Assembly (NCBI GenBank): GCA_902796855.1
Contig: CADBQN010000037.1
Span: forward strand, 761-64,760
Source: an uncultured Bacillota bacterium
GTDB taxonomy: Bacteria; Bacillota; Dehalobacteriia; UBA7702
Length of the DNA stretch: 64,000 nucleotides
Direction of reading: 5' to 3'
The notes below the pieces were generated by a model. That model ran no database searches, was not told the origin of the DNA, and saw nothing but the letters and a program-made list of their open reading frames with translations. The first letter of the stretch is position 1; every line of letters begins with the position of its first letter. This document shows, in pieces, positions 1 to 60,679 of this stretch. A program made the translations under genes and the position numbers.

Positions 1-547
1 GCGCCGCGCCGCAGAGCTCGCAGAGGCCGCGCCACGCTTTGAGCCGGGCAGGGGCTTCCTCCCCGAAGAGACGGCGGGGACGAAAGGCGGAGCAGGGATG
101 CACCACCCCGACCCGCCAGGGGACGGGACGGGCCACGGCGTTTCTCACCGCCGCGGCTTCCCCGGCCAGAAAGGGAACGATGTGCTCCGCCGCTTCCCCG
201 CCGCCACAGCCCAGGCCCAAGGGAGCCAAAAAAGCGTTGATCTCCCGGCGATAGGCTCCGTCCTCCGCCAGCCGCGCCTTCACCCGGGCAAAGGCGTTAT
301 AGCAGCCGCCGCAGAGCGTGACCAGAGGTTTCCCCTCTCTCGCCGCCAGCGCCAGGTTATAGGCGGCCAGCCGGTCCTCGCCGATGCCGGCGCCTCTCAG
401 ATAGGAGCCGCAGCAGACCGCCTCCTTTAAAGGGGCGGCGCTGACGCCGAGACGGCCCAGGACGAAGACGGCGCTCTTTTCGTACTCCGGAAAGCGGTAC
501 GCGACGAGACAGCCGGGATATAACAGAACCTCGCGGGGGAATCCCAT
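1..547 (-). CDS. HdrB-like CCG-domain protein (heterodisulfide reductase subunit B family), partial, runs off the window edge
   Basis: Not in the ORF track. Manual translation from ATG 547 after AGGAAGGTGGTG gives MGFPREVLLYPGCLVAYRFPEYEKSA...EAVCCGS...AYNLALAAREGKPLVTLCGGCYNAF...VVHPCSAFRP, open to position 2; complete CCG motif. Confidence 0.85.
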   Translation of the reverse strand, partial: MGFPREVLLYPGCLVAYRFPEYEKSAVFVLGRLGVSAAPLKEAVCCGSYLRGAGIGEDRLAAYNLALAAREGKPLVTLCGGCYNAFARVKARLAEDGAYRREINAFLAPLGLGCGGGEAAEHIVPFLAGEAAAVRNAVARPVPWRVGVVHPCSAFRPRRLFGEEAPARLKAWRGLCELCGAA

Positions 548-582
548 CTTTCGCCACCACCTTCCTGATAAATCTCAAATGT

Positions 583-1017
583 TCAGCCGCCGAGCTCCGC
601 CAGCTTCCGCTGACGGGCGATTTCCTTTTCCAGCCAGCTCATATACGCTTCGCCGCGGAGCAGCTGCTCCAGATCGGCGGGATCGGTCATTTTGATTTTT
701 ACCATCCAGCCCGCGCCGTAACAGTCGTCGTTGATGAGATTGGGCTCAAACTCCAGTTCCTCGTTGACTTCCAATATCTCGCCGCTGACGAGGGCGTAGA
801 CCCGCCCCACCCATTTGCCGGATTCCACCGACATGAAGGGCTTTTCCCGGATGATCTTTTTGCCGGGATTCGGCGATTCCACATAGACGATCTCCCCGGC
901 GGAATCCACGGCGAAGCTGGTAAAGCCCATCGTCACCACGTCGCCTTCGACTCTGCCCCAAAAATGATGTTTGTCATAGTACAACTCGTCGGGATAATTG
1001 TAATCCTCAAACCGCAT
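583..1017 (-). CDS. Lipoate-binding GcvH-family protein (LbpA-like lipoylation motif)
   Basis: PDELYYDKHHFW, lipoyl-Lys motif SVESGKWVG, INDDCYGAGW; no gcvP/gcvT in the window. Confidence 0.9.
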   Translation of the reverse strand: MRFEDYNYPDELYYDKHHFWGRVEGDVVTMGFTSFAVDSAGEIVYVESPNPGKKIIREKPFMSVESGKWVGRVYALVSGEILEVNEELEFEPNLINDDCYGAGWMVKIKMTDPADLEQLLRGEAYMSWLEKEIARQRKLAELGG

Positions 1018-1041
1018 AACCGCGCCTCCTCTGTTTTTTCT

Positions 1042-2217
1042 TTACTGATTTGCCTCGTAAGCCGCCATGGAGCGATCCACCAGTTCCGTGATGTCCGCGA
1101 AGCGCAGACGGATCTTTTTCCGGCGGGCGTTCCCCTGGAGCGTGCGCTTGCACTGCTGGCACCCGGAAACGACGGTCTTCGCCGCCGTCGCCTCGGCCTC
1201 CCGCAGCCGCGCCTCGGCAATGACCTCGGTCAGGGCGGGGTCCACCGCCTCTAAGTTCCCGCCGCCGCCGCAGCAGGCGGCGTCACTGCCGGAACATTCC
1301 ATTTCCACCAGTTCCAGACCGGGGATCTGGTTCAGCACGTAGCGGGGCTCCTCAAAAACGCCGCTGTTGCGCCCGAGGTCGCAGGGGTCGTGATACGTCA
1401 CGCGCTCTTCCACGGGACCCAGCCGCAGGCGGTCCGCAGCGATTTCCCGGGCCAGCCACTGACTGGCGTGGAGCACCTCAAAGGGCGTTTCCCCGCCGAG
1501 AATTTCCGGGTAAAAGTCGCGCCAGGCGTGGAAGCAGGAAGGACAGGTCGTGACGACGGTCCTGACGCCCAGCTCCTTCGCGGCGGCGACATTGTGTTCC
1601 GCCTGTTTTCTGATCCGCTCCGGTTCCCCGGCGGCGGCCAGGGGAAAACCGCAGCAGGACTCGTTTTCACCCAACACGGTGAAATCCGCGCCGGACCGCG
1701 TCAGGATCCGGGTAAAGGCCTGGGGGATGCCGTAAATCTGGGGATAGAGTGCGCCGGAGCAGCCGGTGAAATAGAGGAGCTCCGCCTTTTGCCCCACCCG
1801 CTTTAAAACCGCTTCGTCGTCCATGGCCTCCAGCCACAGGCGGCGGTTCTCCGGGGCGTCCCCGGCGGTGTTGCCGGTCTCGTCGATGGCGGCGGCCAGG
1901 CGCCGCATGTTTTCGGGGCCCTTTTCCCCGGCGGCAATCCGTCGGCGCATTTCCAGCCAGACCGACACCGTGTCGATCCGGGCGGAACAGGTCTCACGGC
2001 ACTGACCGCAGAGGGTACACTGGAATAGCCGCGCGATGTCCTTTTCCGTCAGCTTACCGTGAAAGGCCAGCTTGCGCGTGATTTCCATTTTTGCCCGGGG
2101 GGAGGCGGATTCCCAGCCGAGGCCTTCGTAAACGGGGCAGTCCACGCGGCAGTAGCCGCAGCGGGCGCAGACGAGGGCCTCCTTTTTCAGATTTTCAAAT
2201 ATCGGTTTCCCGCGCAT
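1042..2217 (-). CDS. Fe-S oxidoreductase with two 4Fe-4S motifs and two CCG domains (GlcF/HdrD-like)
   Basis: CARCGYCRVDCP and CTLCGQCRETC; FTGC..SCCG..TTCPSC and HDPCDLGR..CCGGGG..GCQQC; start moved to ATG 2217 (MRGKPIF) after GGAGG. Confidence 0.9.
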   Translation of the reverse strand: MRGKPIFENLKKEALVCARCGYCRVDCPVYEGLGWESASPRAKMEITRKLAFHGKLTEKDIARLFQCTLCGQCRETCSARIDTVSVWLEMRRRIAAGEKGPENMRRLAAAIDETGNTAGDAPENRRLWLEAMDDEAVLKRVGQKAELLYFTGCSGALYPQIYGIPQAFTRILTRSGADFTVLGENESCCGFPLAAAGEPERIRKQAEHNVAAAKELGVRTVVTTCPSCFHAWRDFYPEILGGETPFEVLHASQWLAREIAADRLRLGPVEERVTYHDPCDLGRNSGVFEEPRYVLNQIPGLELVEMECSGSDAACCGGGGNLEAVDPALTEVIAEARLREAEATAAKTVVSGCQQCKRTLQGNARRKKIRLRFADITELVDRSMAAYEANQ

Positions 2218-2218
2218 G

Positions 2219-3658
2219 TCAACGCCTCCTTCCGATCCGCAGCACGCGGCTGCCGAGGTTCGCCGCGAAACAGGCCAGGCCAAAGAGGGCCGGCGGCATC
2301 AGCTTTGGCGGCCGATAGAATTTCCCCGGGTTCATCCGGTTCTCCGGATCCAGCCGTTCCTTCGCTTCCCGGGCCTCGGCGAGGGACGCCGGATCCCGGG
2401 AGCGTTTCAGATAAACGGTGTTCCAGACGCCGGTGCCGTAGGGCCGTCCGCCGCAGGCGATGGCGGCGTCGTTGATTTTTTTCGTTTTCGCCAGGTAAAA
2501 CAGGTAGCGCAGCGTCTGCGATTCGTCGGCGTAATACTGCGCCATCACGTTGGCCTGCTGACCGCTCATCATGTGACCGTAGACGGACACGCGCTGACGG
2601 AGCTTTTTCACCCGGCCGTAAAAGTCGTTCAGCCGCGCCATCGGCAGGATCACTTCCGCCGCCAGCAGCGTCGGGCCGTTTCGCTTGATCCGCAGGGAAT
2701 AGAGACGCTCTTCCCATTCTTCCGCCGCCGTTTCGTCGGAGCAGAGGCGGACGCCGGTCTTCAGGCGGATCGTCTCGGCGTAGGCGCGGCAGGCGGCCAT
2801 ATCCGCCGCGGCGCCGCGGTAGGAGAGCGTCACCAAAAAGCCGCTGACCTCGGGGACTTCATACCCCATCCGCTTTTGAAAATCGAGGCAGGTGCGGTCG
2901 GCAAAATGACCGTTGAACGGCTTGACCGGGCCTTTTTCCGCCATGTCCATGATCTTTGCCGCGACGATGGCCGAGGGGGCCGCGAAGGAAACGTGATACG
3001 CCGCTTCCGCCAGGGGCACCACCTTAAAGGTGAGGCGGGTCACAATGGCGAGGGTGCCCTCCTTGCCCGCGAAGAGGGAGAGGGGCCGCGGGCCGGCGGC
3101 GTCGGCGTCAAATTCCTCACCGGAGGCCAAAATCACGTGGGCGGATTCCACCAGGTCGTGGAAACAGCCCCAGGCCATGCTGCCGATGCCCTGCCCCTCC
3201 ATACTGAACCAGCCGCCCACCGTGGAGGAAACGGCGCTGCTGGGATAGGAGCAGAGGGTGAACCCCTCCCGGTTCAGGTCTTTTTCCAGCGCGCTCCAGG
3301 CGGTGCCGCACCAGACTTCGGCGACGCCCCGTTCCTTATCGAGGCGGATCAGGCCGCTGAGGCCGGTGAGATCCATCACCATGCCGCCGCTGACCGGCAC
3401 CGCGTTCATATAGGCCGAAGTGCCCCCGGCCCGGGGCGTGATGGCCATGTGATTGTCCCGGGCGTAGGCGACCAGCTGACGGACATCCTCCTCGCTTTGG
3501 GGGCGGGCCGCCAGCTCGGCGCCGACCCGGAACATCAGTTTCACCAGAAAACCGGGGAACGAGGCCATATCCCGGGTATAAAACGACGTTTCAAAGGGAT
3601 CGTCGGTGACGCGGCCGTTCAGTTTTTCCTTTAAGAGATCAAAATTTTCCGCTGTCAT
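2219..3658 (-). CDS. FAD-binding oxidoreductase, GlcD/D-lactate dehydrogenase family
   Basis: RPQSEEDV..ITPRAGGTS, YPSSAVSSTVGGW, GKEGTLAIVT, C-terminal LDPENRMNPGK. Confidence 0.9.
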   Translation of the reverse strand: MTAENFDLLKEKLNGRVTDDPFETSFYTRDMASFPGFLVKLMFRVGAELAARPQSEEDVRQLVAYARDNHMAITPRAGGTSAYMNAVPVSGGMVMDLTGLSGLIRLDKERGVAEVWCGTAWSALEKDLNREGFTLCSYPSSAVSSTVGGWFSMEGQGIGSMAWGCFHDLVESAHVILASGEEFDADAAGPRPLSLFAGKEGTLAIVTRLTFKVVPLAEAAYHVSFAAPSAIVAAKIMDMAEKGPVKPFNGHFADRTCLDFQKRMGYEVPEVSGFLVTLSYRGAAADMAACRAYAETIRLKTGVRLCSDETAAEEWEERLYSLRIKRNGPTLLAAEVILPMARLNDFYGRVKKLRQRVSVYGHMMSGQQANVMAQYYADESQTLRYLFYLAKTKKINDAAIACGGRPYGTGVWNTVYLKRSRDPASLAEAREAKERLDPENRMNPGKFYRPPKLMPPALFGLACFAANLGSRVLRIGRRR

Positions 3659-4959
3659 AGGGTCTCCTTTCTCTTTCTCCCGGGCGGGCGGAACTCCCGC
3701 AGATACGATGATAGCTGATGGGGAATGACGATGTTTCGGCGGATATCGCCGATATCGCCGGCGGCAGCGGGCAGCGCCGCGCCTTTTTCCATCAGCGCCA
3801 GCAGCGGCCCGGCGAATTCCAGCGTTCCCACCATCTGCGCGCCGACAAGGCGGTTCCGCCGCAGCAGCAGACGGGTATAGCCGCCGCCGGCAGACCGTTC
3901 CGCCACACGATACCGCCGCCCTTCCAGATCGTCTTCCGTCGCGCCAAAGGCCAGCACCGGCGTTTCGCCGACGTAGGTCAGCAGCACCGCCAAAGAACCG
4001 GGAAAGGGCTTACGCCGTCCCGCCGCGGCGAGACCGGCGGTCTCGCCCTGACGGGCGGCGGCTTCCCACAGCAGGTTCAGCACCGGCTTTTGGGTAAGCC
4101 GGTCCGTCGATTCGGTACAGTCCCCGGCGGCGTAGAAATCGGGGAGGTTCGTGGCCATGCAGTCATCGACGAGGATGCCGCCGGTCTCGCCCAAAGCGAC
4201 GCCGGCGTCTGCGGCCAACTCGACCCGGGGACGGACCCCCACGGCCCAAAGCACCAGGTCACAGGGGATCTTTTCGTGATTTGTCTCCGCGAAGGCGACT
4301 TTGCCTTCGCCCTTCACGGCGTTGACGCTCTCGCCGGTGAGGACGCGGATTCCGCGTTTTTCCACCTCGGCGGCGACCAGCGCCGCGGTATCCCGGTCGA
4401 GGGATTTCGGGATGACCCGATCCATCAGCTCCACCAACGTCACCCGTTCGCAGCCGCTTTCCTTCAGCGCCAGGGCGCCCTCGAGGCCGATGGCGCCGGA
4501 GCCGACGACCACGGCGGAAGAGGCCTTCTGCGCCAGCAGGCCGTCAACGTCGGCGACGGTCTTCATCACCCGGTTCCCCGGCAGGCCGATGCCCTCGATC
4601 CTCCGGGGCAGAATGGGAAAGCTGCCGGCGGCGTAGATCAGCCGGTCATAAGCGATGACGTGTTTTTCCGTCACGGCTTTTTTCTCCCCGTGGCGGATCT
4701 CCAGCACCTCTTCCCCGAAAAGGACGCCGACGCCGTCTTTTTCGTAATCCTCGGCGCGGCGGATGAAGATCTCCTCCCGGGGGATATGCCCGGCGAGATA
4801 ATCCGGCAGGGCCCCGGCGGCGTAGGCGGGACAGGACTCGCCGCTGACGATGAGGATCCGCAGCGCAGGGTCTTCCCGGCGGGCCGCGGCGGCGGCGCGG
4901 ATACCGGCGACGCCGTTGCCGATGATCAGCAGATCCGTTTCGCGATTCGGTTTTGCCAT
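3655..4959 (-). CDS. FAD-dependent pyridine nucleotide-disulfide oxidoreductase (NirB/AorC-like)
   Basis: IIGNGVAG, VVGSGAIGLE and TNLPDFYAAGDC motifs; start at MAKPNRET. Confidence 0.9.
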   Translation of the reverse strand: MAKPNRETDLLIIGNGVAGIRAAAAARREDPALRILIVSGESCPAYAAGALPDYLAGHIPREEIFIRRAEDYEKDGVGVLFGEEVLEIRHGEKKAVTEKHVIAYDRLIYAAGSFPILPRRIEGIGLPGNRVMKTVADVDGLLAQKASSAVVVGSGAIGLEGALALKESGCERVTLVELMDRVIPKSLDRDTAALVAAEVEKRGIRVLTGESVNAVKGEGKVAFAETNHEKIPCDLVLWAVGVRPRVELAADAGVALGETGGILVDDCMATNLPDFYAAGDCTESTDRLTQKPVLNLLWEAAARQGETAGLAAAGRRKPFPGSLAVLLTYVGETPVLAFGATEDDLEGRRYRVAERSAGGGYTRLLLRRNRLVGAQMVGTLEFAGPLLALMEKGAALPAAAGDIGDIRRNIVIPHQLSSYLREFRPPGRKRKETL

Positions 4960-4963
4960 GGTC

Positions 4964-5881
4964 TCACCTTCCTTTCCCAAGCAGTTCGCGGCCTTGGCGC
5001 GCCGCCTTGCGGGCGGATTCGGTCAGTTCCGTTTCCCGGCAGTTCGCGCCGGTCACGGCGTTATACAAAGCCAGGGCTTTCCTGAGCTTATCATCGATAA
5101 AATCATAGTTCTCCCAGGCGAGGCCGAGGAGGGAAAGGGCCGTTTTTTCCAGTTCCTCCCGGGAATCCGCGAAGGACAGAAGACGCCCGGCGCCGAGGTT
5201 CCGCTCACCGCCCGGGGAGAGATAACGGGCGGGACGCGCCGTCGTTTCCCCTGCGGGACAGTCCCCGCGGAATTCGGCGCAGAGGCGGAGGAACCGTTCG
5301 GGATCGGCGACGGGGATGCCGCCGTGGCCCGACACGACGACGGCGGAGAGGTTCTTTTCCCGGAAGAGACCGGCGAAAAAAGCGTCGCCCAAAGGGAAAT
5401 CGCCGTCTTCCGACAACGCGCCGTCGGCTTCGGTGACGATGACGCGCTCACCGTCGGCGGTAAAGGAGCGAAGCTCCCGCAAAAAGTCCTCTTCCCTTCT
5501 CTTCCGCAGCGGCACGACGGAGACTTCCCCGTCCCGGATCAAAAGCGCCGCTTTTTTCGCGGCTTTTCCCGTGACGCAGAGATGCTCAAAACCGCTGTGC
5601 CGCAGATAGGCCCCGAAACGCCCCTCGGCCGCGGCCGCGGCGAACACGCCGCCGGACGCGCCGCACCAGGTCATGCCGGCGGAACCCGGCGCGCCGGTGC
5701 CGGTGACTTTGCCGGCGGAGACGGAAACAAAGGGACGCCCCTTTTCCAGCAGGCACAGGAAGAGCGGCGGCAGAAAGCCCCAGCCGCTTCGGGGGAACCC
5801 GTTTTCCTCGCCGCCGAGACTCAGCGTCTCGGCGCTTTCGGTATTCAGATCAACAAACAGGCATTTCGATACGTCGCGCAC
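4964..5881 (-). CDS. Shortened, divergent aldehyde:ferredoxin oxidoreductase-like protein (mostly the N-terminal domain)
   Basis: LFVDLNTES, GRFGAYLRHSGFEHLCVTGKAAKKAALLIRDGEV and EKNLSAVVVSG resemble the AOR N-domain; only 305 aa; lies between Fe-S and FAD subunit genes. Confidence 0.65.
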   Translation of the reverse strand: MRDVSKCLFVDLNTESAETLSLGGEENGFPRSGWGFLPPLFLCLLEKGRPFVSVSAGKVTGTGAPGSAGMTWCGASGGVFAAAAAEGRFGAYLRHSGFEHLCVTGKAAKKAALLIRDGEVSVVPLRKRREEDFLRELRSFTADGERVIVTEADGALSEDGDFPLGDAFFAGLFREKNLSAVVVSGHGGIPVADPERFLRLCAEFRGDCPAGETTARPARYLSPGGERNLGAGRLLSFADSREELEKTALSLLGLAWENYDFIDDKLRKALALYNAVTGANCRETELTESARKAARQGRELLGKGR

Positions 5882-5902
5882 GCGCCATCCCCTCCTTTGA
5901 TG

Positions 5903-6367
5903 TCAGCGGTTCCCGCCGAACCGCTCCCGGGCATGACCTTCCCGGAAACGGCGGCTGATTTCGGCTTCCTCAAGATAGGCCAACGCTCCCGTCGGGCAGA
6001 CTTTCACGCAGAGCGGGTCGCCCCCGCACAGATCGCAGGTGACGTAAACGTCACGGACGCTGTCGTACACCGGCGCGCCGAAGGGGCACATGACCTCACA
6101 GGCGCCGCAGGCGAAGCAGCCCTCCTCCCGGCGCGTCACGGCGCCGTCGGCGCCGCGGTCGACGACCCCTTTTAAGCAGGCGGTCACACAGACGGGATCG
6201 GCGCAGTGCTGGCAGTAGACGACGTTCAGACCGTCGGCGCCGGCATAACGCTCCACACGGATGGCGCTTTCGCCGGGGCGCACCTCCCCGGCGCGTTTCA
6301 GGGAGCACAGCGCCTGACAGACGCCGCAGCCGCCGCACTTGGATCGCTCGATCATCAGTTTTTTCAC
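5903..6367 (-). CDS. 4Fe-4S dicluster electron-transfer protein (DmsB/CooF/AorA-like)
   Basis: Four Cys clusters: CGGCGVCQALC, CQHCADPVCVTAC, CFACGACEVMCP, CDLCGGDPLCVKVCP. Confidence 0.92.
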   Translation of the reverse strand: MKKLMIERSKCGGCGVCQALCSLKRAGEVRPGESAIRVERYAGADGLNVVYCQHCADPVCVTACLKGVVDRGADGAVTRREEGCFACGACEVMCPFGAPVYDSVRDVYVTCDLCGGDPLCVKVCPTGALAYLEEAEISRRFREGHARERFGGNR

Positions 6368-6465
6368 AAGGCCTCACCTTCCTCCCCCGGCCCCGCCAAA
6401 GCGCGGATCAGCCGTTGCCGGGGAGCGCCCGAAACGACCGCCCCCGCGCTGTTTGCCTTTGGAAT

Positions 6466-6482
6466 ATGCAAAAACGATACCA
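6466..6482 (-). promoter_or_regulatory. sigma54 (-24/-12) promoter of the redox operon
   Basis: Minus strand TGGTATCGTTTTTGCAT = GG-N10-GC, about 100 bp upstream of the first gene. Confidence 0.7.
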
Positions 6483-6614: not shown

Positions 6615-6683
6615 TGTCCCACCGGGCGGCGGCGCGGAACAAAAATGTCTCATTTGCCGGAAGCCGGGACAAATCTGTCTCAT
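6615..6683. promoter_or_regulatory. Putative sigma54 enhancer (activator-binding) repeats
   Basis: TGTCCCAC (6615), TGTCTCAT (6646) and TGTCTCAT (6676) at about 30-bp spacing, with an inverted GGGACA at 6666, 130-200 bp upstream of the sigma54 promoter. Confidence 0.5.
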
Positions 6684-7549: not shown

Positions 7550-7676
7550 CACTCTCCGAGTCGTTTTTCCTGTCTTGAAGAAAGTGGAAATCCGACCTGG
7601 GCGCGGTTCCCGCCGGGAGTCCGGGCCCACGGGGCGCGAAGGGAAACGTTCGCGCCTGCCATTTCGCAAAGGAGCG
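7550..7676 (+). ncRNA. Moco/Tuco-type riboswitch candidate
   Basis: 5' CTCCGAG and 3' GCCTGCCATTTCGCAAAGGAG (cf. recalled consensus GCCUCCCG..UGGAAAGGAG), GCGCGAAG-GGAAAC-GTTCGCGC hairpin; operon ends in mobA. Confidence 0.75.
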
Positions 7677-7775
7677 GTTTTTTTGACGTGCCGTCTTCGG
7701 CTGAATGATCGTATGTATCGCGTCCTTTTTTGGGGGGAACGCGGTTTTTTTGAGGTTTTGGGGAAGAGGTGGCTT

Positions 7776-8813
7776 ATGAGACCGGGAAATGAAACGGCGG
7801 GGTTCCTCCGCCGCCGGAAATACCTTTTGCTGGCGGCGCTGACGTTGGCCGCCGCCGCCGTCAGTCTGACGCTGGGCCGTTATCCCGCCGACGCCGCCGA
7901 CGTCTTCACGGTGATGCGGCTCCGCCTCACCGGCGCGGACCCCGGGGAATACGCCGCGCTCTCCGGCATCATCTTTGCCGTTCGGCTCCCGCGGGTCGCC
8001 GGGGCGCTGCTCATCGGCGCGGCGCTGGCCGTTTCCGGCGCGGCGTATCAGGGTGTTTTCAGGAATCCATTGGTCTCCTCCGACCTCTTGGGAGTCTCCG
8101 CCGGGGCGGGATTCGGCGCGGCCATGGCGATTTTGGCCTCGGCCAACATGATCACCGTCCACTTTGTCTCCTTCTTTTGCGGCCTCGGCGCCGTCGCCGC
8201 CAGCTATTTCATCAGCGCCCGCCTCAGCGGCGGCCTGAAAGAAGGAACCCTCGTGATGGTACTCGCCGGGATATTGGTCTCCACGGTGTTTCAGGCGCTG
8301 ATCGCCTTTATTAAAACGGTGGCGGATCCCTTTAACAAGCTGCCGGCGATTACCTATTGGCTCATGGGCGGCTTATCCTCTCTCACCTCCGCCCAATTGA
8401 GCCTTATCGCGCCGCCGATCATCGTCGGCGCGCTCCCCCTGCTCCTGCTGCGCTGGAAGCTGAACCTGCTCACCCTCGGCGAGGAGGAATCCCTCGCGCT
8501 GGGGCTCCGCCCGGCGCTGGTGCGGACCGTCGCCGTCGTCTGCGCCACGCTGGTGACCGCCGCGGCGGTGAGCGTCAGCGGCATCATCGGCTGGATCGGT
8601 CTGGTCATTCCCCATCTGGTCCGGTCGCTGACGGGGCCGGACTACCGGGATCTGATCCCGATGTCCCTCTTTTTGGGCGGCCTCTATCTGCTGGTCATCG
8701 ACACCGTCGCCCGCACCGTTCTGACGATGGAGATTCCCTTGGGCATTCTCACCGCGCTCATCGGCGCGCCCTTCTTTGTTTATCTTCTGCGGCGCATGAA
8801 GGAGGCCTGGTAA
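7776..8813 (+). CDS. Type II (FecCD/BtuC/MolB) ABC transporter permease
   Basis: VRLPRV..GAALAVSGAAYQGVFRNPLVS, GIIGWIGLVIPH, EIPLGILTALIGAPFF; in-frame TTG at 7683 behind the riboswitch SD is an alternative start. Confidence 0.93.
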   Translation: MRPGNETAGFLRRRKYLLLAALTLAAAAVSLTLGRYPADAADVFTVMRLRLTGADPGEYAALSGIIFAVRLPRVAGALLIGAALAVSGAAYQGVFRNPLVSSDLLGVSAGAGFGAAMAILASANMITVHFVSFFCGLGAVAASYFISARLSGGLKEGTLVMVLAGILVSTVFQALIAFIKTVADPFNKLPAITYWLMGGLSSLTSAQLSLIAPPIIVGALPLLLLRWKLNLLTLGEEESLALGLRPALVRTVAVVCATLVTAAAVSVSGIIGWIGLVIPHLVRSLTGPDYRDLIPMSLFLGGLYLLVIDTVARTVLTMEIPLGILTALIGAPFFVYLLRRMKEAW

Positions 8814-9601
8814 TGAATCTGACGCTGGAAAACGTCATCTATCGCTACGAAACGGGGAACGAGGTGCTGAACGGCATCGACCTGACGCTGAGCGACGGCG
8901 AAATCCTCTGTCTCCTCGGACCCAACGGCAGCGGCAAGACGACGCTGTTCAAGCTGATTTTGGGGCTGATGCCCCCTTCCGGCGGCCGGGTGACGCTGAA
9001 CGGCAGGGACGTCACCGCCTATCCCCGGCGGGAACTGGGGAAGATCCTCGGCTACGTACCGCAGAACCACATCCCCGCCTTTCCCTACAGCGTTTTGGAC
9101 ATGGTCGTGATGGGCCGCAACGCCCACCTGGAGAACGGCCGCGCCCCGAAACAGAGGGATTACGACATCGCCCGCGGCGCCCTTGAGGACATGGGCATCG
9201 AGAGCCTGGCGGAAAAGAACTACATCCGCATCAGCGGCGGCGAACGGCAGCTGGTGCTCATCGCCAGAGCCCTGGCCCAGCAGGCGAAGATCCTCATTTT
9301 GGACGAACCCACCGGCAACCTCGATTTCGGCAATCAGGTCCGGGTGCTGCGGCAGATCCGCCGCCTGGCCAAAACGGGCATCGCCGTCCTGATGTCCTCT
9401 CACTTCCCCGGCGACGCCTTTCAGAACGCCAGCAGAGCGGCGCTTTTGAAGGATGGGAAAATCCGGGAAAGCGGCGCGCCGGAGGAGGTCATCACCGAAA
9501 AGAACCTAAAAGCGCTCTACGGCGTCGACGTCTCTGTCGCCGCCGCCCGGGACAGGGCGGGCAATCTGTACCGCGTCTGCGTACCGGCGCGGCGGGACTG
9601 A
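8813..9601 (+). CDS. ABC transporter ATP-binding protein (FepC/MolC-like)
   Basis: GPNGSGKT, ISGGERQ, ILDEPT; TAATG overlap with the permease stop. Confidence 0.95.
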   Translation: MNLTLENVIYRYETGNEVLNGIDLTLSDGEILCLLGPNGSGKTTLFKLILGLMPPSGGRVTLNGRDVTAYPRRELGKILGYVPQNHIPAFPYSVLDMVVMGRNAHLENGRAPKQRDYDIARGALEDMGIESLAEKNYIRISGGERQLVLIARALAQQAKILILDEPTGNLDFGNQVRVLRQIRRLAKTGIAVLMSSHFPGDAFQNASRAALLKDGKIRESGAPEEVITEKNLKALYGVDVSVAAARDRAGNLYRVCVPARRD

Positions 9602-9701
9602 GCCTTTCTATATAAAACACTGCCAACCAGCTTTTTTTATGACGCGGCCGCCGGGCGGAAAGCTCCGCCGCGCCGCGGCAAAACCCCAAAGGAGGTTCAC
9701 C

Positions 9702-10769
9702 ATGAAAAAAATCATCACCTTGTTTCTCTGCCTGACCCTTTTGTTTTCTTTCTGCGCCTGCGGCGAGGAACCGGAACCCGCCGCGGATACGAGGACCGTC
9801 ACGGACATGGCCGGAAGGGAAGTGGATATCCCGGCAGACGTCGAGACCGTCTTCGCCACCGGCGCCGTCGGCGGCGTGTTCATGTATACCCTGGCTCCGG
9901 ATATGCTGGCGGCCTGGAACGGCGATCTCCGCGACAGCGAAAAGGCCTTCATCGACGAGGCTTATTGGGATCTGCCGGCGCTGGGCACCTGGAAGGGCAC
10001 GAATTTCACCGGAAGCATGGAAGATCTCATCGCCCTGGAGCCCGATATCATCATCAGCATGGGCGACGTCACCGTGGACCACGCCTCGGAAGCCGATGAG
10101 ATCGAATCGTTATGCGGGATTCCCGTGGTCATGGTCGACGGCGGACTCGGGAATTTGGATAAGGCCTACACCTTCCTCGGCGACATCCTGAACCGACAGG
10201 AGCGCGCCGAGGAGCTGGGGGCCTATTGCTCGGAAACGCTTGCCGCCGTGGAAGAAGCGGTGAAGACCGTCCCCGAGGAAGAGATCCGGACCGTCTATTA
10301 CGGTGAGGGCGTCGACGGCCTGGAAACGGAAGTGCCCGGTTCCCTCAACGCCGAAGCCATCGCCGCCGCCGGCGGCGTCAACGTGGCGGAAACGGCGGAG
10401 ACCGGCGTTTCCCGGATCAGCGTCTCCCTGGAACAGGTCGCCGCCTGGGATCCCGATGTCATCCTCCTCAGCGGTGACGGCGACACCGCTCACGAACTCT
10501 ATCAGTACGTCCGCGCCAACGAAGGCTGGGCCACGGTGCCCGCCGCGGCCCGGGGCGACGTCTTTGAAATCCCTTACGGGCCCTACGACTGGATCAACCG
10601 TCCGCCCTCGGTGGCCCGGATCATCGGCGTGGAATGGCTGGCGCGGCTGCTGTATCCCGAAGCGTACCCCGTTGACCTGAACGAGCGCATCCGCCAGTAT
10701 TACTCCCTCTTCTACCACCGTGACCTCACCGACGAGGAAATCACGGCCCTGCTGGAATACGCGGGATAA
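9702..10769 (+). CDS. ABC transporter substrate-binding lipoprotein (type III, BtuF/MolA-like fold)
   Basis: Lipoprotein signal ending FSFCAC, VTDMAGREVDIP, VSLEQVAAWDPDVI; RBS GGAGG. Confidence 0.9.
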   Translation: MKKIITLFLCLTLLFSFCACGEEPEPAADTRTVTDMAGREVDIPADVETVFATGAVGGVFMYTLAPDMLAAWNGDLRDSEKAFIDEAYWDLPALGTWKGTNFTGSMEDLIALEPDIIISMGDVTVDHASEADEIESLCGIPVVMVDGGLGNLDKAYTFLGDILNRQERAEELGAYCSETLAAVEEAVKTVPEEEIRTVYYGEGVDGLETEVPGSLNAEAIAAAGGVNVAETAETGVSRISVSLEQVAAWDPDVILLSGDGDTAHELYQYVRANEGWATVPAAARGDVFEIPYGPYDWINRPPSVARIIGVEWLARLLYPEAYPVDLNERIRQYYSLFYHRDLTDEEITALLEYAG

Positions 10770-10781
10770 GGAGGGAAAAGG

Positions 10782-11372
10782 ATGGAACTGACCGGCATCG
10801 TTTTAGGCGGCGGCAAGAGCCGGCGCATGGGCGGGGAAGATAAGACGCTGCTGAAAATCAACGGCGAGACCTTGGTGGAACGCGCCGTTAAAGCGCTGCG
10901 GCCCTGGTGCGGCGATATCATCATCGCCTCCAACGCCGCCGCCAAATACCGCGTCGCTAACACCGTCGAGGTGATCGACTCCTGGCCGGACATCGGCCCC
11001 CTCGGCGGGATCCACGCGGGCCTCGCCGCCGCGGAACATGACTTTGCCATGGTCGTCGCCGGGGATATGCCCTTCTTTTCCGGCCGTCTGACGGCGTGCC
11101 TGCTTCGCCGCAGAACGCCGGAAGCCCAGATCGTCATCGCAGACGGCGGCAGGGGGCCGGAGCCCCTCTGCGCCCTCTATGGCAGAACGTGCCTGCCGCT
11201 GATCGAGGAGATGGTCCGGCGGGGCGTTTACGCTCCCCGGGAGCTGCTGCGCGAAACAAAGCACGTCATCGTGACGAAGGAGGAACTTCGCCGGGATGAC
11301 GTGCCGGAAAACATCTTTTTTAATCTGAACTCCGCCGAGGACAAACGCCGCTGGCTCGGGGGGACGCTTTGA
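10782..11372 (+). CDS. mobA: Molybdenum cofactor guanylyltransferase
   Basis: GIVLGGGKSRRMGGEDK, GPLGGIHAGL, GDMPF, EPLCALY, FFNLNS. Confidence 0.9.
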   Translation: MELTGIVLGGGKSRRMGGEDKTLLKINGETLVERAVKALRPWCGDIIIASNAAAKYRVANTVEVIDSWPDIGPLGGIHAGLAAAEHDFAMVVAGDMPFFSGRLTACLLRRRTPEAQIVIADGGRGPEPLCALYGRTCLPLIEEMVRRGVYAPRELLRETKHVIVTKEELRRDDVPENIFFNLNSAEDKRRWLGGTL

Positions 11373-21709: not shown

Positions 21710-22957
21710 TCAGACGAAGCGGCGGTCAAAGACGCGCTTCGATTTCTTTTCGCTCCGGGGCAGTTCGCCGAGGGCGACGGCTTCCGTCTCCACGGTGATG
21801 TTGATCCTCGTTTTAAACAACGTTTTCAGCTTGGCTTCCAGCGATTTGCGGCTTTCACCGGCGGGGAGGGACGTTTCCACCCGCACCTTCATGTGATCCT
21901 TGCCCTCCAGGTGGTCGATGAGGACCTGATACTCACTGGAGGCGTCGTCCAGTTCCTTTAAAATATCCTCGATCTGACCGGGGAAGATGTTGACGCCCTT
22001 GACCTTGACCATGTCGTCGGTGCGGCCGAGGATCGTGTCGATGCGGGGATAGTCGCGGCCGCAGGGACAGGGCTCGTCGGCGGGGATGATCCGGGTGAGG
22101 TCGTGGGTGCGGTAGCGGATCAGCGGCGCGCCTTCCTTTTCCAGGGTAGTGATGACCAGCTCGCCGAGTTCCCCGTCGGGGAGCACCGCGCCGGTCTTCG
22201 GGTCGATGATCTCAAAATAGAGATAATCGTCAAAATAGTGCATGCCGGTCTCATATTCACAGTTCACGGCGATGCCGGGGCCGTAGATTTCCGTCAGGCC
22301 GTAGATATCGTAGAGCTCGATGCCCAGCTCGTCGGCGATGCGGCGGCGCATCTTCTCGCCCCAGCGTTCGGAACCGATGACGCCCTTTTTCAGTTTGATA
22401 TGCTCCCGGATGCCGCGCTTCTCGATTTCCTCCGCCAGCAGCAGAGCGTAGGACGAAGTGGAGCAGAGCACGGTGGAGCCGAGATCCCGCATGAACTGGA
22501 TCTGCTTTTCGGTGTTGCCGGGGCCCATCGGCACCGCCATAGCGCCGAGGAGCTCCGCGCCAAGCTGAAAGCCGATGCCGGCGGTCCACAGACCGTATCC
22601 CGGCGTGATCTGGATGCGGTCTTCCCGGGTGATGCCGGCGATTTCGTAACAGCGCTTGAAGAGGATCGCCCAGTCGTCGACATCCTTTTGGGTATAAGGG
22701 ATGATGACCGGCGTCCCGGTGGTGCCGCTGGAAGAATGGATACGGACGATCTCCGAATCCGTCACGGCGGAGAGCCCTAAGGGATAGGCGTCCCGGAGGT
22801 CGGCCTTTTCCGAAAAGGGCAGTTGCTCAAAATCCTCTTTGCCGCCGATGGCCTCGATGTCGAAGCCCTCCAATTTCTGAGCGTAGAAGCTCCCGGCCGC
22901 TTTGACGCGGCGGAGCTGTTTTTTGATTTTTTCTAACTGTGTCTGGGATAATTCCAT
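21710..22957 (-). CDS. Phenylacetate-CoA ligase family (aryl-acetate CoA ligase)
   Basis: RIHSSSGTTG, YGLWTAGIG, DIYGLTEIYGPG, RYRTHD, GRTDDMVKVKGVNIFP. Confidence 0.93.
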   Translation of the reverse strand: MELSQTQLEKIKKQLRRVKAAGSFYAQKLEGFDIEAIGGKEDFEQLPFSEKADLRDAYPLGLSAVTDSEIVRIHSSSGTTGTPVIIPYTQKDVDDWAILFKRCYEIAGITREDRIQITPGYGLWTAGIGFQLGAELLGAMAVPMGPGNTEKQIQFMRDLGSTVLCSTSSYALLLAEEIEKRGIREHIKLKKGVIGSERWGEKMRRRIADELGIELYDIYGLTEIYGPGIAVNCEYETGMHYFDDYLYFEIIDPKTGAVLPDGELGELVITTLEKEGAPLIRYRTHDLTRIIPADEPCPCGRDYPRIDTILGRTDDMVKVKGVNIFPGQIEDILKELDDASSEYQVLIDHLEGKDHMKVRVETSLPAGESRKSLEAKLKTLFKTRINITVETEAVALGELPRSEKKSKRVFDRRFV

Positions 22958-22963
22958 GATCTC

Positions 22964-23554
22964 TTATCTCTTTTCTGATAGGGTCTTCGCGCCGAGTTCC
23001 AGCGCTTTTTTGTTCATATCGAGAAACCGCGGCCTGATTTTTTTGGCCATGGCGGTTTCGATTTCACTGAGGGTCAGCCCCATTTCACCGCTTTCGGCGA
23101 GGGCGCCGAGGAGCGCCATGTTGACCACGCGGGGGGACCCGCAGACGGCGACAATGGCAGCGGTATCGAGGACGGCGGCTTTTTCCAGGTGCTCCCGCAG
23201 ATAGGCCAGGATCGCCCCGCCGTCATAGGCGGTGCCGCCGAGGGAGGCGGTGACCGGAGCGACGGTCTCGGGACAGGTGATCACCGTGCCGCCTTCCTTT
23301 AAGTAACGAAGATTGCGGAGCACCTCGCCGGGCTCAAAACCGAGGAGCACATCGGCGCCGCCGTTGGGGATCAGCGGCGAGGGCACCGACGCGCCGACGC
23401 GAACGTGGCTGACGACGGAACCGCCCCGCTGGGCCATGCCGATGGTTTCGGCGGTGCGGGCAAACAGCCCCTTTCCCATGGCGGCGGCGGCAATGATCCG
23501 GGAAGCGAGAACGGTGCCCTGACCGCCGACGCCGCAAAGCAGACAACTCTTCAT
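22964..23554 (-). CDS. iorB: Indolepyruvate:ferredoxin oxidoreductase beta subunit
   Basis: GVGGQGTVLAS, ETIGMAQRGGSV, NMALLGA; start MKSCLL. Confidence 0.92.
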   Translation of the reverse strand: MKSCLLCGVGGQGTVLASRIIAAAAMGKGLFARTAETIGMAQRGGSVVSHVRVGASVPSPLIPNGGADVLLGFEPGEVLRNLRYLKEGGTVITCPETVAPVTASLGGTAYDGGAILAYLREHLEKAAVLDTAAIVAVCGSPRVVNMALLGALAESGEMGLTLSEIETAMAKKIRPRFLDMNKKALELGAKTLSEKR

Positions 23555-23555
23555 C

Positions 23556-25322
23556 TCACTGTTCCTCCTTCCCGATGCAGCCCTTGGGACAGACGCTTTG
23601 ACAGAGGCCGCAGCCGACGCAAAGCGCCGGGTCGATGGCGGTCTTTTCCCCATTCTTCCGCAGAGCGGGACAGCCCAGCTGACGGATGCACTTGCCGCAG
23701 CCGACGCAGGTCTCCGCGTCCACCGCAAGGGGGGTTCCGCCTTTTTCCAGCGCGACGCAGGGAGAGCGGAAGATGATGGCGCGGACGCCCTCTTCCGCGG
23801 CGGCGGCCTTCACGGCATCTTCCGCGGCGGCCCGGTCAAAGGGATCCGCCGTCCGCACCGAGGCGACGCCGCAGCCTTTCAGCACCGACGCGATGTCGAT
23901 GACCTGGGTCGGCTCGTTCATCACGGTAATACCGAGACCGGGATGGGGCTGGTGCCCCGTCATCGCCGTGGTGTGGTTGTCGAGAACGACAAGGATCAGA
24001 TCGGCCTTGTTGTAGACGGCGTTGATGACGCCGGTGATCCCCGAGGCAAAGAAGGTGGAATCGCCGACAAAGGCAAAGGTCTGCCCCTCTTCCCCGGCGT
24101 GATACAGCCCCTGTGCCACGGTGATCCCGGCGCCCATGCAGAGGCAGGTATCCACCATATCGAGGGGCGCGGCGTTGCCTAAGGTGTAACAGCCGATGTC
24201 GCCGCAGAAGATCGCCTTTTTCCCCTTCATCGCCTGTTTCACGGCGTAGAAGGAGGCACGGTGGGGGCATCCGGCGCAGAGCACCGGCGGCCGCGGCGGC
24301 AGGAACGGCGCGTCTTCATTGAAGGGCGGCGCCGCCTTGGCGGTACCGAGAATGCTCCCGACGATGTCGGCGCTGAGCTCCCCGGCGGCGGGGACGGTGC
24401 CGTCCCGTTTCCCAAAAAGGGGAACGGCGGGGCGGAGCATGGTCAGGGCGTCCTCAATGACGGGATCGAGCTCCTCAAAGACATAGACTTTCTCAACACC
24501 GGCCAAAAATGACGCGGCCTTTTCCGCCGGGAAGGGATAGGGCGTGGCGACTTTGAAAACAGTGTAATCCTCTTCATGGCCGCGGATGGCGTCCATGACA
24601 TAGGCAAAGCTGACACCGCCGCAGGCGATGCCGATTCTGCCGCCGCCGATGATCTCGTTGCGGCCGTATCCGGAAAACGTTTCGGCATAAGTCTTTTCCG
24701 CGGCGAAGAGCCGCTTTTTGCTCTCGAAGGAAAGCCGGGGGAAGATCACCCAGCGGGGATCCTTCTCAAAGCCGGGAGCACGCTCCGGCGCTTTCGGTTC
24801 CGGCACGTCCACCGAGGCGCAGGAGTGGCACACCCGGGTGGTGGAACGCAGGATCACCGGCACGCCCTCTTTTTCGGAGAAATCAAAAGCTTCCATGGTC
24901 ATAGCGAAGGCCTCTTCCGGCGAGGAACAGTCGAAAACGGGGATCCGCGCGTAGCGGCCGAAATGGCGGGTATCCTGCTCCGTCTGGGAGGAGATCGGCC
25001 CGGGATCGTCGGCGACATAGACCACCATGCCGCCTTTCACGCCGATGTAGTTGACGCACATCAGCGGGTCCGAAGCGACGTTCAGCCCCACCTGTTTCAT
25101 CGTGACGAGGCTCCGCGCCCCGGCGTAGGCGGCGCCGGCGGCCACTTCCAGACCGGCCTTTTCGTTGACCGACCACTCCACGTGAACAAAACCGGGGTTC
25201 CGTTTGGCAATGGTCTCCAGCACCTCGGTGGAGGGCGTTCCCGGATAGCCGGAGACGACCCGCACACCGGCGGCGATGGCGCCCAGCGCCACGGCCTCGT
25301 TCCCCATGAGCAATTCAAGCAT
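23556..25322 (-). CDS. iorA: Indolepyruvate:ferredoxin oxidoreductase alpha subunit
   Basis: LMGNEA, YPGTPSTE, NEKAGLE, PPVLCAGCPH, GDIGCY, GDSTF, TAMTGHQ, C-terminal ferredoxin; true start ATG 25322. Confidence 0.95.
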   Translation of the reverse strand: MLELLMGNEAVALGAIAAGVRVVSGYPGTPSTEVLETIAKRNPGFVHVEWSVNEKAGLEVAAGAAYAGARSLVTMKQVGLNVASDPLMCVNYIGVKGGMVVYVADDPGPISSQTEQDTRHFGRYARIPVFDCSSPEEAFAMTMEAFDFSEKEGVPVILRSTTRVCHSCASVDVPEPKAPERAPGFEKDPRWVIFPRLSFESKKRLFAAEKTYAETFSGYGRNEIIGGGRIGIACGGVSFAYVMDAIRGHEEDYTVFKVATPYPFPAEKAASFLAGVEKVYVFEELDPVIEDALTMLRPAVPLFGKRDGTVPAAGELSADIVGSILGTAKAAPPFNEDAPFLPPRPPVLCAGCPHRASFYAVKQAMKGKKAIFCGDIGCYTLGNAAPLDMVDTCLCMGAGITVAQGLYHAGEEGQTFAFVGDSTFFASGITGVINAVYNKADLILVVLDNHTTAMTGHQPHPGLGITVMNEPTQVIDIASVLKGCGVASVRTADPFDRAAAEDAVKAAAAEEGVRAIIFRSPCVALEKGGTPLAVDAETCVGCGKCIRQLGCPALRKNGEKTAIDPALCVGCGLCQSVCPKGCIGKEEQ

Positions 25323-25339
25323 AACTCTCTCTCCTCCAA

Positions 25340-59194: not shown

Positions 59195-59233
59195 ATTATT
59201 TCCTCCAAATGATTGAGTATAATTAGATTGGGA

Positions 59234-60663: not shown

Positions 60664-60679
60664 AGCAATTACCGTGCCA
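60664..60679 (-). promoter_or_regulatory. sigma54 promoter of mtbB-mtbC
   Basis: TGGCACGGTAATTGCT, essentially consensus -24/-12. Confidence 0.9.

Follow-up and report, generated by a model that had tools for sequence, protein, structure and literature searches.

What does a lipoyl-carrier H protein do in an anaerobic bacterium without a glycine cleavage system, and why does its gene sit among genes for proteins with CCG domains, the domains of the heterodisulfide reductase (Hdr) subunits HdrB and HdrD? This question is raised by the first 6,482 nucleotides of a 64,000-nucleotide stretch (the window), which covers positions 761-64760 of contig C37 in a 2.11-Mb, 84-contig Bacillota genome (completeness 98.4%, contamination 1.84%). 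A sequence-only reading of this stretch had proposed that protein-bound lipoamide serves as the redox "heterodisulfide" between 2-hydroxyacid oxidation and NAD or ferredoxin. Comparative analysis supports linking the H protein with CCG proteins, a GlcD/HdrD pair and a lipoylation set of its own (Lpl(AB), LipS1, LipS2 and LipT), a combination that recurs across phyla. Judged from such sequence evidence, there is a somewhat better than even chance that the H protein is lipoylated by its own pathway and that HdrD and HdrB use its dithiolane as the disulfide substrate of their CCG sites.

The operon comprises seven minus-strand genes packed within window positions 1-6482 (G+C 0.60-0.67 across the first 12 kb), all of which were confirmed where the sequence-only reading had placed them, with junctions of 21, 4, -4 (an ATGA overlap), 1, 24 and 35 nt and a Shine-Dalgarno-like run at each. 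From the promoter onwards, they encode an AorA/PadI-N-like polyferredoxin (5903-6367; 154 aa, with Pfam Fer4 families and 16 Cys in four [4Fe-4S] motifs), an AFOR_N-only protein (4964-5881; 305 aa, AFOR_N 42.6 bits), an AorC/PadH-like FAD- and NAD(P)H-binding oxidoreductase (3655-4959; 434 aa from ATG, Pyr_redox_2 200 bits), a GlcD-like flavoprotein of the VAO/PCMH family (2219-3658; 479 aa, FAD_binding_4 101.5 bits and FAD-oxidase_C 57.4 bits), an HdrD/GlcF-like protein (1042-2217; 391 aa from ATG, 2x[4Fe-4S] and two complete CCG domains), the lipoyl-carrier H protein H1 (583-1017; 144 aa, GCV_H 135 bits) and an HdrB-like protein cut by the window edge (1-547). The likely start codons of the FAD protein and the HdrD-like protein are the ATGs at 4959 and 2217, the open reading frame (ORF) starts as listed being too long for both. 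Contig C37 extends 760 nt to the left of the window, completing the HdrB-like gene (C37:429-1307, 292 aa, two CCG domains), and hdrC, which had been suggested as a target of such an extension, lies just past the edge: an eighth gene on the same strand (C37:79-465, 128 aa) encodes an HdrC-like protein with 2x[4Fe-4S] and two CxxCxxCxxxC motifs, overlaps HdrB by 37 nt, and is followed by only 78 nt before the contig terminates.

The GG-N10-GC promoter seen in the sequence-only reading also withstood closer inspection. The element TGGTATCGTTTTTGCA (6467-6482, minus strand), with TGGTAT at -24 and TTGCA at -12, lies about 95 nt upstream of the first gene and is an exact match to the consensus TGGYAYN5TTGCW, of which the 64-kb window holds two exact matches compared with 0.10 expected from shuffled sequences. 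The spacing between the two boxes is correct, and the genome encodes both RpoN (Sigma54_DBD 172.9 bits, contig C12) and a sigma-54 activator; the operon is thus predicted to be sigma-54 dependent.

H1 and a second H protein, H2 (139 aa, encoded on contig C44), carry an unusual motif around the lipoyl lysine. The predicted lipoyl-Lys68 of H1 lies in VESGKWVGR and the corresponding motif of H2 is LEAGKWVGG, whereas canonical GcvH has ESVKA. Among 5.8 billion proteins, 119 of the 120 best H1 matches, including proteins of Neomoorella humiferrea and Desulfocarbo indianensis, share GKW, and the remaining one has AKW. K68 is invariant across a 38-row H alignment. Maximum-likelihood analysis of 45 H proteins places the 37 GKW rows apart from canonical GcvH and other H paralogs, with support of 97/89. 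Against TIGR00527, five canonical GcvH proteins from genomes carrying the system scored 149-167.5 bits and eight GKW proteins 78.5-120.1, with H1 at 116.5 bits, 0.65 above the equivalog cut-off of 115.85, and H2 at 95.0, below it. Since the scores of GKW proteins reach the range of GcvH models, annotation pipelines name many of them GcvH, and this is indeed the database name of the H1 relatives. Two to four H paralogs occur in each of five genomes that carry related loci (L020, L069, L021, L050 and L065), and two of these five keep a canonical gcvT-gcvH-gcvP set elsewhere. On their sequences, H1 and H2 are therefore assigned to a distinct subfamily with an ESGKWVG lipoyl-lysine motif that is not a component of glycine cleavage, which supports the sequence-only reading on this point. 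The LbpA proteins of sHdr systems, which that reading had cited as known partners of Hdr-like complexes, differ from H1 and H2. LbpA is defined by a pair of Cys residues at its N- and C-termini (10.64898/2026.10.01.755906; PMC6067878), and one of them, the preprint 10.64898/2026.10.01.755906, uses a pI mark of 4.5. C99 is the only Cys of H1, H2 has C29 and C40, neither protein has a terminal Cys, and by sequence reading the LbpA-type Cys pair is absent from both; their pI values of 4.63 (H1) and 4.10 (H2) straddle the preprint's mark. The published sHdr gene set is likewise incomplete here, as described below.

The genome holds no other destination for lipoate. Profile searches and tblastn detected no GCV_T or GDC-P in this 98.4%-complete assembly, so the lack of gcvP and gcvT that the sequence-only reading had observed at the locus holds for the whole genome. 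No real E2 was found in the genome, the single partial match reaching 24.8 bits. Dihydrolipoamide dehydrogenase (Lpd) and HdrA, both of which had been proposed as targets for a search, were not found either: the sole Pyr_redox_dim protein of the genome is a CoA-disulfide reductase (CoADR)-rhodanese, and tblastn gave no match to HdrA or MvhD. This flavoprotein, similar to CoA-disulfide reductases and with a C-terminal rhodanese domain, is the lone gene of contig C71 (2198 bp). All four CCG domains of the genome sit in the HdrD-like and HdrB-like proteins of the operon. Despite the lack of a classical client, two H proteins, Lpl(AB), LipT, LipS2 and LipS1 are encoded. An H protein, a lipoate ligase domain and this clade of HdrB were found in none of six other genomes of the same genus (0/6) and in none of five from the neighbouring genus (0/5), which suggests acquisition as a package; it would thus seem that lipoate metabolism in this organism serves this system alone and came in together with it.

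The lipoylation genes lie on contig C44, where the lipoate ligase and LipS homologs sought after the sequence-only reading were recovered. C44 starts inside a gene and reads in one direction: a ligase-like gene with its 5' end cut at the head of the contig is followed, within C44:762-5313, by H2, a fused LplA+LplB ligase (Lpl(AB)), a geranylgeranyl-reductase-family LipT-like protein and LipS2-like and LipS1-like radical-SAM proteins. A 225-aa protein without assigned function separates the LipS1-like gene from a GAF-PAS-AAA+-HTH sigma-54 activator (C44:6294-8273). The head of C37 showed no 21-mer overlap with any other contig end. In related loci (L019 and L020) the gene order is HdrB, HdrC, ligase-like genes, H2, Lpl(AB), LipS2 and LipS1, and no consensus sigma-54 promoter precedes H2. 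This order, together with the missing promoter, suggests that C37 and C44 adjoin each other at their heads and that the window operon would read on into the lipoylation genes. Under this arrangement, the activator gene lies between the window operon and a second, molybdenum-enzyme operon downstream on C44.

The company of the H gene in other genomes was assessed in two samples. In the first, 80 metagenome loci centred on H genes were grouped by sequence motif, and neighbouring genes were counted. Among 18 loci with GKW-motif H, CCG genes occurred at 13, lipoate ligase at 10, GlcD at 6, LipS at 4 and GcvT/P at none; among 49 with the canonical motif, CCG, lipoate ligase, GlcD and LipS were each absent (0) and GcvT/P was present at 37; the 13 loci with other motifs had GcvT/P at 2 and none (0) of the other four. 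The second sample comprised 52 HdrB-centred loci, mostly from Anaerolineae/Chloroflexota metagenome-assembled genomes (MAGs) together with Bacillota. A GKW-H gene was present in 21 of the 52; when only the 28 loci flanked upstream by 7 kb or more are considered, the count is 17. A ligase-like gene, in many cases placed immediately before HdrB, was present in 29/52, an HdrD-like gene in 23/52 and GcvT/P in 0/52. HdrC adjoined HdrB in 46/52 loci (39/52 under a stricter overlap filter). Linkage of H, Lpl and LipS was also found in loci L020, L069, L050, L065, L092, L099 and L105.

The gene combination of the window, whose conservation had been named as a decisive check, recurs in MAGs of Syntrophomonadaceae and Desulfitobacterium and, in variant form, in other phyla. 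In the Syntrophomonadaceae MAG (L167 and L020), the full gene set forms one cluster, beginning with an activator, a sigma-54 promoter, a major facilitator superfamily (MFS) transporter, an archaemetzincin-like gene, a Mo enzyme, a DmsB-like protein, and AorA-like, AFOR_N-only and AorC-like genes, continuing with GlcD, HdrD, H, a LipS2-like radical-SAM protein, an AhpD-like protein, HdrB and HdrC, and ending with a FecCD-type ABC importer, an NTPase, two ligase-like genes, H2, Lpl(AB), LipS2 and LipS1. In L167, the one exact sigma-54 promoter stands after the activator and before the first gene. In the Desulfitobacterium MAG (L069), these parts are distributed over four transcription units, and all four, the one with the lipoylation genes included, have an exact sigma-54 promoter in front of them. 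In both MAGs the sigma-54 operon opens with the MFS transporter and the small archaemetzincin-like gene (L167:14162-15936 and L069:7823-9616); the transporter is of the aromatic-acid or anion:cation symporter type, with every model below its cut-off, and tblastn found neither in the genome of the window. Both also encode a third, LipS2-like radical-SAM protein near the H and AhpD-like genes (L020:8498-9565 and L069:13228-14349; 67-80 bits against a cut-off of 270), of which no separate copy was found in the genome of the window. A complete genome of the same class as the window (G028) has a minimal GlcD-HdrD-H(GKW) triad. In the Anaerolineae locus L021, the H gene accompanies a multihaem cytochrome c, a cytochrome b, HdrD, a ligase and HdrBC, together with a second HdrC'B', HdrA-like genes and MvhD. 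In another Anaerolineae MAG, one 1436-aa ORF (L068:3992-8302, plus strand) joins three GCV_H-like domains to GlcD and HdrD (Fer4 and 2xCCG) and adjoins a ligase-like gene and HdrB.

These distributions bear on the simplest alternative, namely that the genes are adjacent without shared chemistry, the H protein being a housekeeping lipoyl relay, GlcD/GlcF an ordinary D-lactate or glycolate dehydrogenase, and HdrBC a reductase of a small-molecule disulfide. GcvH is a lipoyl-relay carrier in Bacillus. H1 passes the NCBIfam GcvH subfamily model and, barely, the equivalog model, its relatives are named GcvH in databases, and five of seven long GlcD homologs are GlcD-HdrD fusions without an H domain; none of the seven (0/7) has one, which leaves L068 as the single such fusion seen. 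However, a relay would have no target in this genome, where E2 and GcvT/P were not found; GKW-H lies beside GcvT/P in 0/18 and 0/52 loci and mostly beside CCG genes; lipoylation genes come under shared sigma-54 control in L069; and the other genomes of the genus that were searched have neither H protein nor ligase. Mere adjacency is thus considered improbable.

Regarding the electron-transfer genes at the head of the operon, the sequence-only reading had seen an aldehyde oxidoreductase (AOR)-type module, of which only the AorA/AorC-like parts can be retained because the AOR itself is a catalytically dead relic. A polyferredoxin with 4x[4Fe-4S] and an FAD/NAD(P)H subunit without redox-active Cys were found, as in AorABC-type modules. 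AorABC is the tungsten aldehyde oxidoreductase of Aromatoleum. The operon shares with AorABC (8c0z) and with PadH/PadI of phenylglyoxylate dehydrogenase the order of polyferredoxin, AOR-fold protein and FAD/NAD subunit, and over its full length its flavoprotein is matched most closely by AorC and PadH, but its AOR-fold protein keeps domain 1 only. The iron-sulfur protein matches the N-terminal part of PadI best in NCBIfam (85.9 bits, below cut-off). The flavoprotein scored 183 bits against PadH and 190 bits against the N-terminal part of NirB, both below cut-off, and aligns to an AOR subunit (PDB 8c0z_E) across residues 18-398. It has no Pyr_redox_dim domain and has Gly at the redox-Cys position of CoADR/Nox enzymes, and therefore is not a dihydrolipoamide dehydrogenase. 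In the AFOR_N protein, AFOR_N is the sole Pfam match even at E<=1, with no match to AFOR_C at that threshold; the protein is 305 aa long compared with about 600 for AORs, and PDB 1aor aligns to it at residues 60-223 only. A search of 1.84 billion representatives recovered a family of 26 clusters at E<=1e-10 (about 260-430 aa, mostly about 300 aa), against which full-length AORs score lower. No Cys is conserved among 25 aligned members, and hhalign of the family against a 597-aa AOR gave 99.3% probability, covering the first 230 residues of the AOR only. A possible resemblance of the family's tail to the AOR C-terminus was also considered and is unsupported, as hhalign aligned only the first ~212 profile columns. 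With neither AFOR_C nor a conserved Cys, the protein is unable to hold tungstopterin or a cluster by the known mode of binding; it is classed on sequence as a non-catalytic AOR relic without W-pterin/[4Fe-4S] domains and probably acts as a scaffold.

The GlcD-HdrD pair and HdrBC retain the features expected of redox enzymes while standing apart from characterized families. The GlcD-like protein scored 89.1 bits against TIGR00387 (cut-off 567.9) and 43.5 against PRK11230 (cut-off 897); its best PDB match is LctD (7qh2_C, 68 bits), and the nearest Atlas clusters are auto-named as D-lactate dehydrogenase (cytochrome) family. The HdrD-like protein has CCG matches in two stretches (111.9 bits) and Fer4_8, and every score against the TfrB, LdhH, GlpC and DsrK models is below cut-off. 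As in glycolate oxidase GlcDEF and LctD of the Ldh-Etf complex (7qh2), an FAD_binding_4/FAD-oxidase_C flavoprotein is translationally coupled to a protein with 2x[4Fe-4S] and 2xCCG; the D-lactate dehydrogenase of Desulfovibrio with its HdrD-like subunit is presumably a comparable GlcD-type 2-hydroxyacid dehydrogenase. In contrast to these enzymes, the operon GlcD is very divergent, the locus has no GlcE and no Etf, and an H(GKW) gene repeatedly comes after pairs of the operon type, with fusion to H-like domains in one case.

In the HdrB-like protein, Pfam CCG matches in two stretches, with the full 10-Cys set for two non-cubane [4Fe-4S] clusters: C13, C45, C46, C79, C82, C152, C192, C193 and C228 are invariant in 23 clade members, and C231 is nearly so (at least 90%). 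The two-CCG, 10-Cys HdrB followed by a 2x[4Fe-4S] HdrC resembles methanogen HdrABC/HdrDE (HdrB chains 5odc, 8rvv and others), with 83-89 bits to HdrB chains in the PDB; the differences are a TIGR03288 score of 123.3 bits compared with the equivalog cut-off of 345.15, and the lack of HdrA and MvhD in this genome. Chemistry of coenzymes M and B (CoM/CoB) is not expected in a bacterium. The HdrB clade is rare, with matches at 98%, then 49%, then at most 42% identity, and its member here is only 25-28% identical to ordinary HdrB-like proteins of relatives.

The second operon, which lies outside the window and so was missed in the sequence-only reading, begins on C44 behind another exact sigma-54 promoter, TGGCATCGGAATTGCA (C44:8516-8531), and encodes a 741-aa, Psr/Phs-like enzyme of the Mo/W-bisPGD (bis-pyranopterin guanine dinucleotide) type, a DmsB-like protein with four iron-sulfur clusters, and a 115-aa AhpD-like CxxC protein with a PCKYC motif. 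Paired RGACA-N4-TGTYY sites, 30-33 bp apart, lie 150-200 bp upstream of both sigma-54 promoters; those before the window operon (6637-6680, two copies 30 bp apart) are candidate activator sites. The motif has 22 matches in the 2.11-Mb genome, and pairs within 120 bp occur at these two promoters only, a count that is supportive only, the motif having been derived post hoc from the same two regions. In addition, the region upstream of the C44 promoter shares a 12-mer and repeats with that of the window. Taken as supportive evidence, these similarities are consistent with the two operons forming one regulon. The Mo enzyme and its Syntrophomonadaceae counterpart share 80.6% identity, far above the 33-76% of other parts of the system, and the AhpD-like protein keeps PCKYC and 76% identity between phylogenetically separate carriers. 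In mycobacteria, AhpD is reduced by protein-bound dihydrolipoamide. Divergent to the window operon (7575-11372, plus strand) lie a FecCD-type ABC importer (permease, ATPase and Peripla_BP_2 binding protein) and a MobA-like gene. Type II MolBCA importers take up molybdate or tungstate, and this importer, of the FecCD/BtuCDF type, may do so as well. Its homologs, 47-56% identical, sit inside the Syntrophomonadaceae cluster L020, and the importer and MobA-like gene probably supply the Mo/W cofactor to the co-regulated Mo enzyme.

The Mo enzyme also gives rise to what is ranked as the strongest rival, in which the lipoyl arm carries sulfane sulfur as a persulfide or trisulfide in a DsrC-like manner, to be processed by the CCG and Mo enzymes in a cytoplasmic reductive or disproportionating sulfur metabolism. 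Among solved structures, the Mo enzyme comes closest to the polysulfide reductase PsrA of Thermus (2vpw, 236 bits), and its nearest Atlas cluster is auto-named thiosulfate/polysulfide reductase chain A; the cytochrome c, cytochrome b and HdrD set beside the Anaerolineae H gene resembles DsrMK/Hmc; and the genome has a CoADR-rhodanese, which contains its one rhodanese domain. LbpA, the only known H-like partner of Hdr-like enzymes in the available portions of the literature, acts in sulfur metabolism. However, the genome has no match (0) to TusA (PF01206) or DsrE (PF02635), and the H proteins have no LbpA-type Cys pair. The Mo enzyme has no twin-arginine signal at its N-terminus as read and does not belong to the core shared by most loci: a Pfam scan of the ORFs in the 20-kb Anaerolineae locus L021 did not detect it, although a wider tblastn survey did give weak Mo-like matches at 12 of the 52 HdrB-centred loci. 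Moreover, the recurrent GlcD-type flavoprotein points to an organic substrate. A sulfur carrier is accordingly regarded as unlikely, while deserving the first place among the alternatives.

If the system were a bona fide sHdr-LbpA pathway of sulfur oxidation, the combination of an H-like protein, HdrB, HdrC and Lpl(AB)-LipS1/S2-LipT would be explained, as it is found in sulfur oxidizers according to the available portions of three papers (Cao et al. 2018, PMC6067878; Tanabe et al. 2023, PMC10332631; Tanabe et al. 2024, PMC11094781), to which the following comparison is also limited. Both systems join a GcvH-like lipoyl protein to HdrB/HdrC-type proteins, both have a dedicated Lpl(AB)-LipS1-LipS2-LipT pathway, and both have more than one H-like protein per locus. 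The sHdr system is defined by syntenic shdrC1B1AHC2B2 or shdrC1B1AHB3-etfAB-emo (PMC11094781). From these sets, only HdrB, HdrC and an HdrD-like fusion are present here, and no Etf was seen in the locus (a genome-wide search did not include Etf); the genes seen include no homolog of sHdrA, sHdrH or Etf/EMO, and HdrA is missing from the genome. There is no TusA, DsrE or rhodanese set, and the H proteins have an ESGKWVG motif in place of the Cys pair of LbpA. The partners differ as well, being a GlcD-type flavoprotein, an AorA/AorC-like NAD module and a Mo enzyme, and the hosts are strict anaerobes with sigma-54 control, the present one known from rumen, gut and digester samples. Membership in sHdr-LbpA is thus barely credible, and the locus is classified, from its gene content, as a parallel system.

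Two further systems offer partial parallels. DsrC with DsrMK/HdrDE-type complexes (PMC3949148, available portion) likewise uses a small protein that carries a dithiol/disulfide to an HdrD-like CCG subunit, replacing CoM-S-S-CoB, and the cytochrome c/cytochrome b/HdrD set next to the H(GKW) gene of Anaerolineae adds to this likeness; however, the redox group here would be a lipoyl cofactor on a lysine rather than a Cys pair on a C-terminal arm, and there is no dsrAB context. For Culexarchaeia, it has been suggested that GcvH with HdrBC and HdrA2B2C2 may present a lipoyl disulfide to HdrB in organisms without CoM/CoB (Kohtz et al. 2022, PMC9723716). That proposal differs in being archaeal, hydrogenase-linked and put forward as an open idea, and the available portion of the paper describes no H subfamily, lipoylation genes or survey. 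In the full texts searched, which did not extend to supplementary tables that may list such loci, neither this architecture nor a GKW H subfamily was found to be described.

All classical lipoyl proteins carry organic intermediates, as in glycine cleavage and the 2-oxoacid dehydrogenases, and the lipoyl arm could likewise carry an organic group (acyl, aminomethyl or similar) from an unrecognized enzyme of the locus, with the CCG enzymes re-oxidizing or re-reducing the arm. The 225-aa protein, the third, LipS2-like radical-SAM protein of L020 and L069 and the extra ligase-like paralogs in the loci leave room for such an enzyme. However, three full loci contain no decarboxylase, E1-like or transferase domain, and the conserved minimal unit is just GlcD-HdrD-H, which makes this explanation highly improbable.

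Returning to turnover of the lipoyl dithiolane at the CCG sites, a scheme may be drawn from the observed gene content, domain integrity, H subfamily, synteny, shared promoters and lack of another lipoate client. H1 and H2 would be lipoylated by the co-encoded Lpl(AB), LipS2, LipS1 and LipT; because H2 lies beside the ligase and H1 beside the redox enzymes, H2 may be an assembly or relay carrier. The dithiolane of lipoyl-H would contact the non-cubane iron-sulfur (CCG) sites of the HdrD-like protein and HdrBC and be reduced or oxidized there, depending on the direction of electron flow. GlcD would oxidize an organic compound, with a 2-hydroxyacid as the likeliest candidate, and pass the electrons to HdrD, and HdrBC would exchange electrons with NAD(P)(H) via the AorA-like polyferredoxin and the AorC-like flavoprotein, so that the AorA/AorC-HdrBC chain would be an iron-sulfur replacement for the missing dihydrolipoamide dehydrogenase. 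A 2-hydroxyacid is the proposed donor, and NAD or ferredoxin the proposed acceptor. The dead AOR would serve as the scaffold of this chain, and the second operon, with the cytoplasmic Mo enzyme, the DmsB-like protein and the AhpD-like CxxC protein, would provide a further redox partner or sink of the same pool. This specific electron path is tentative and, taken as a whole, rather unlikely to be correct in all its steps.

A broader reading is possible, and held with less than even confidence: GKW lipoyl-H may be a general bacterial heterodisulfide, that is, the dithiol/disulfide substrate of HdrD and HdrB(A)C CCG enzymes in anaerobes that are neither methanogens nor sulfate reducers. In this case it would span Chloroflexota/Anaerolineae, Bacillota and Desulfarculales-like bacteria, couple flavoprotein dehydrogenases with NAD, Mo, membrane cytochrome/quinone and HdrA/MvhD modules as a mobile redox hub, and move between lineages as a package with its own lipoate assembly pathway.

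Several points weigh against these readings. Free lipoamide has a midpoint potential of about -290 mV; its reduction by lactate or glycolate would be uphill, and it would serve poorly as the high-potential acceptor of the HdrA/MvhD modules beside the Anaerolineae homologs. The GlcD-like protein is too divergent for substrate assignment (89 vs 568 bits, and 68 bits to LctD). The LipS2-like and LipS1-like proteins fall below the NCBIfam equivalog cut-offs (229 bits vs 270 and 176 vs 230, respectively), and the proposed adjacency of C37 and C44 rests on synteny. No CCG gene occurs at 5 of the 18 GKW-H loci, although three of these five are at most 3.3 kb long. The three H-like domains of L068 have no lipoyl lysine, and the H fold may dock there rather than carry a cofactor. 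The 45-protein tree, which included no LbpA sequence, tests separation from canonical GcvH only. Finally, the scheme is built on sequence evidence.

The host can be read as an anaerobic, spore-forming member of Bacillota from gut or digester, encoding sporulation proteins, indolepyruvate:ferredoxin oxidoreductases, rubrerythrin and a flavorubredoxin-like protein; the window sequence is present in 20 sequencing runs from nine studies, which sampled the gut of cattle and sheep as well as digesters and bioreactors, and the 24 runs listed for it include no RNA run. The sporulation genes, for YqfD and a PdaB-like protein, occupy window positions 50871-52046 and 31514-32725. Fermentation of aromatic amino acids is suggested by a phenylacetate-CoA ligase together with two alpha subunits of indolepyruvate:ferredoxin oxidoreductase (21710-25523, minus strand, and 52497-54236, plus strand). 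Elsewhere in the window, a dimethylamine methyltransferase gene, mtbB (59222-60622, minus strand), has one in-frame TAG at codon 350 and yields a full-length protein of 462 aa if this codon is read as pyrrolysine (Pyl); the other exact sigma-54 promoter of the window (60664-60679, minus strand) lies just upstream of it, and a PrdR-like sigma-54 activator is encoded nearby (55827-57221, minus strand). Directly downstream of the Mo/DmsB/AhpD-like operon, C44:11956-16909 (L070:3956-8909) contains four methyl-transfer genes, for a corrinoid protein, an MtmB-family methyltransferase whose frame is uninterrupted and has no Pyl codon, a methyl-tetrahydrofolate:corrinoid methyltransferase and an AcsV/RamA-like corrinoid activator. 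By gene content, these constitute a complete methyl-transfer system with no assigned substrate.

Collectively, these analyses bear on both annotation and physiology. The GKW subfamily is mis-annotated as "glycine cleavage system protein GcvH", a label that can mislead pathway reconstruction from MAGs, for instance when glycine cleavage or the reductive glycine pathway is called. Hdr-like CCG proteins occur widely in non-methanogens, in most cases with no thiol/disulfide substrate assigned to them; DsrC is the answer for sulfate reducers and LbpA for sulfur oxidizers, and the present locus and its relatives point to a third, testable one. The system appears to have carried its own cofactor-assembly pathway into a genus that, among the genomes searched, is otherwise without lipoate metabolism. 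If the proposed function is true, the role of lipoate as a pure redox cofactor would extend into fermentative and anaerobic metabolism.

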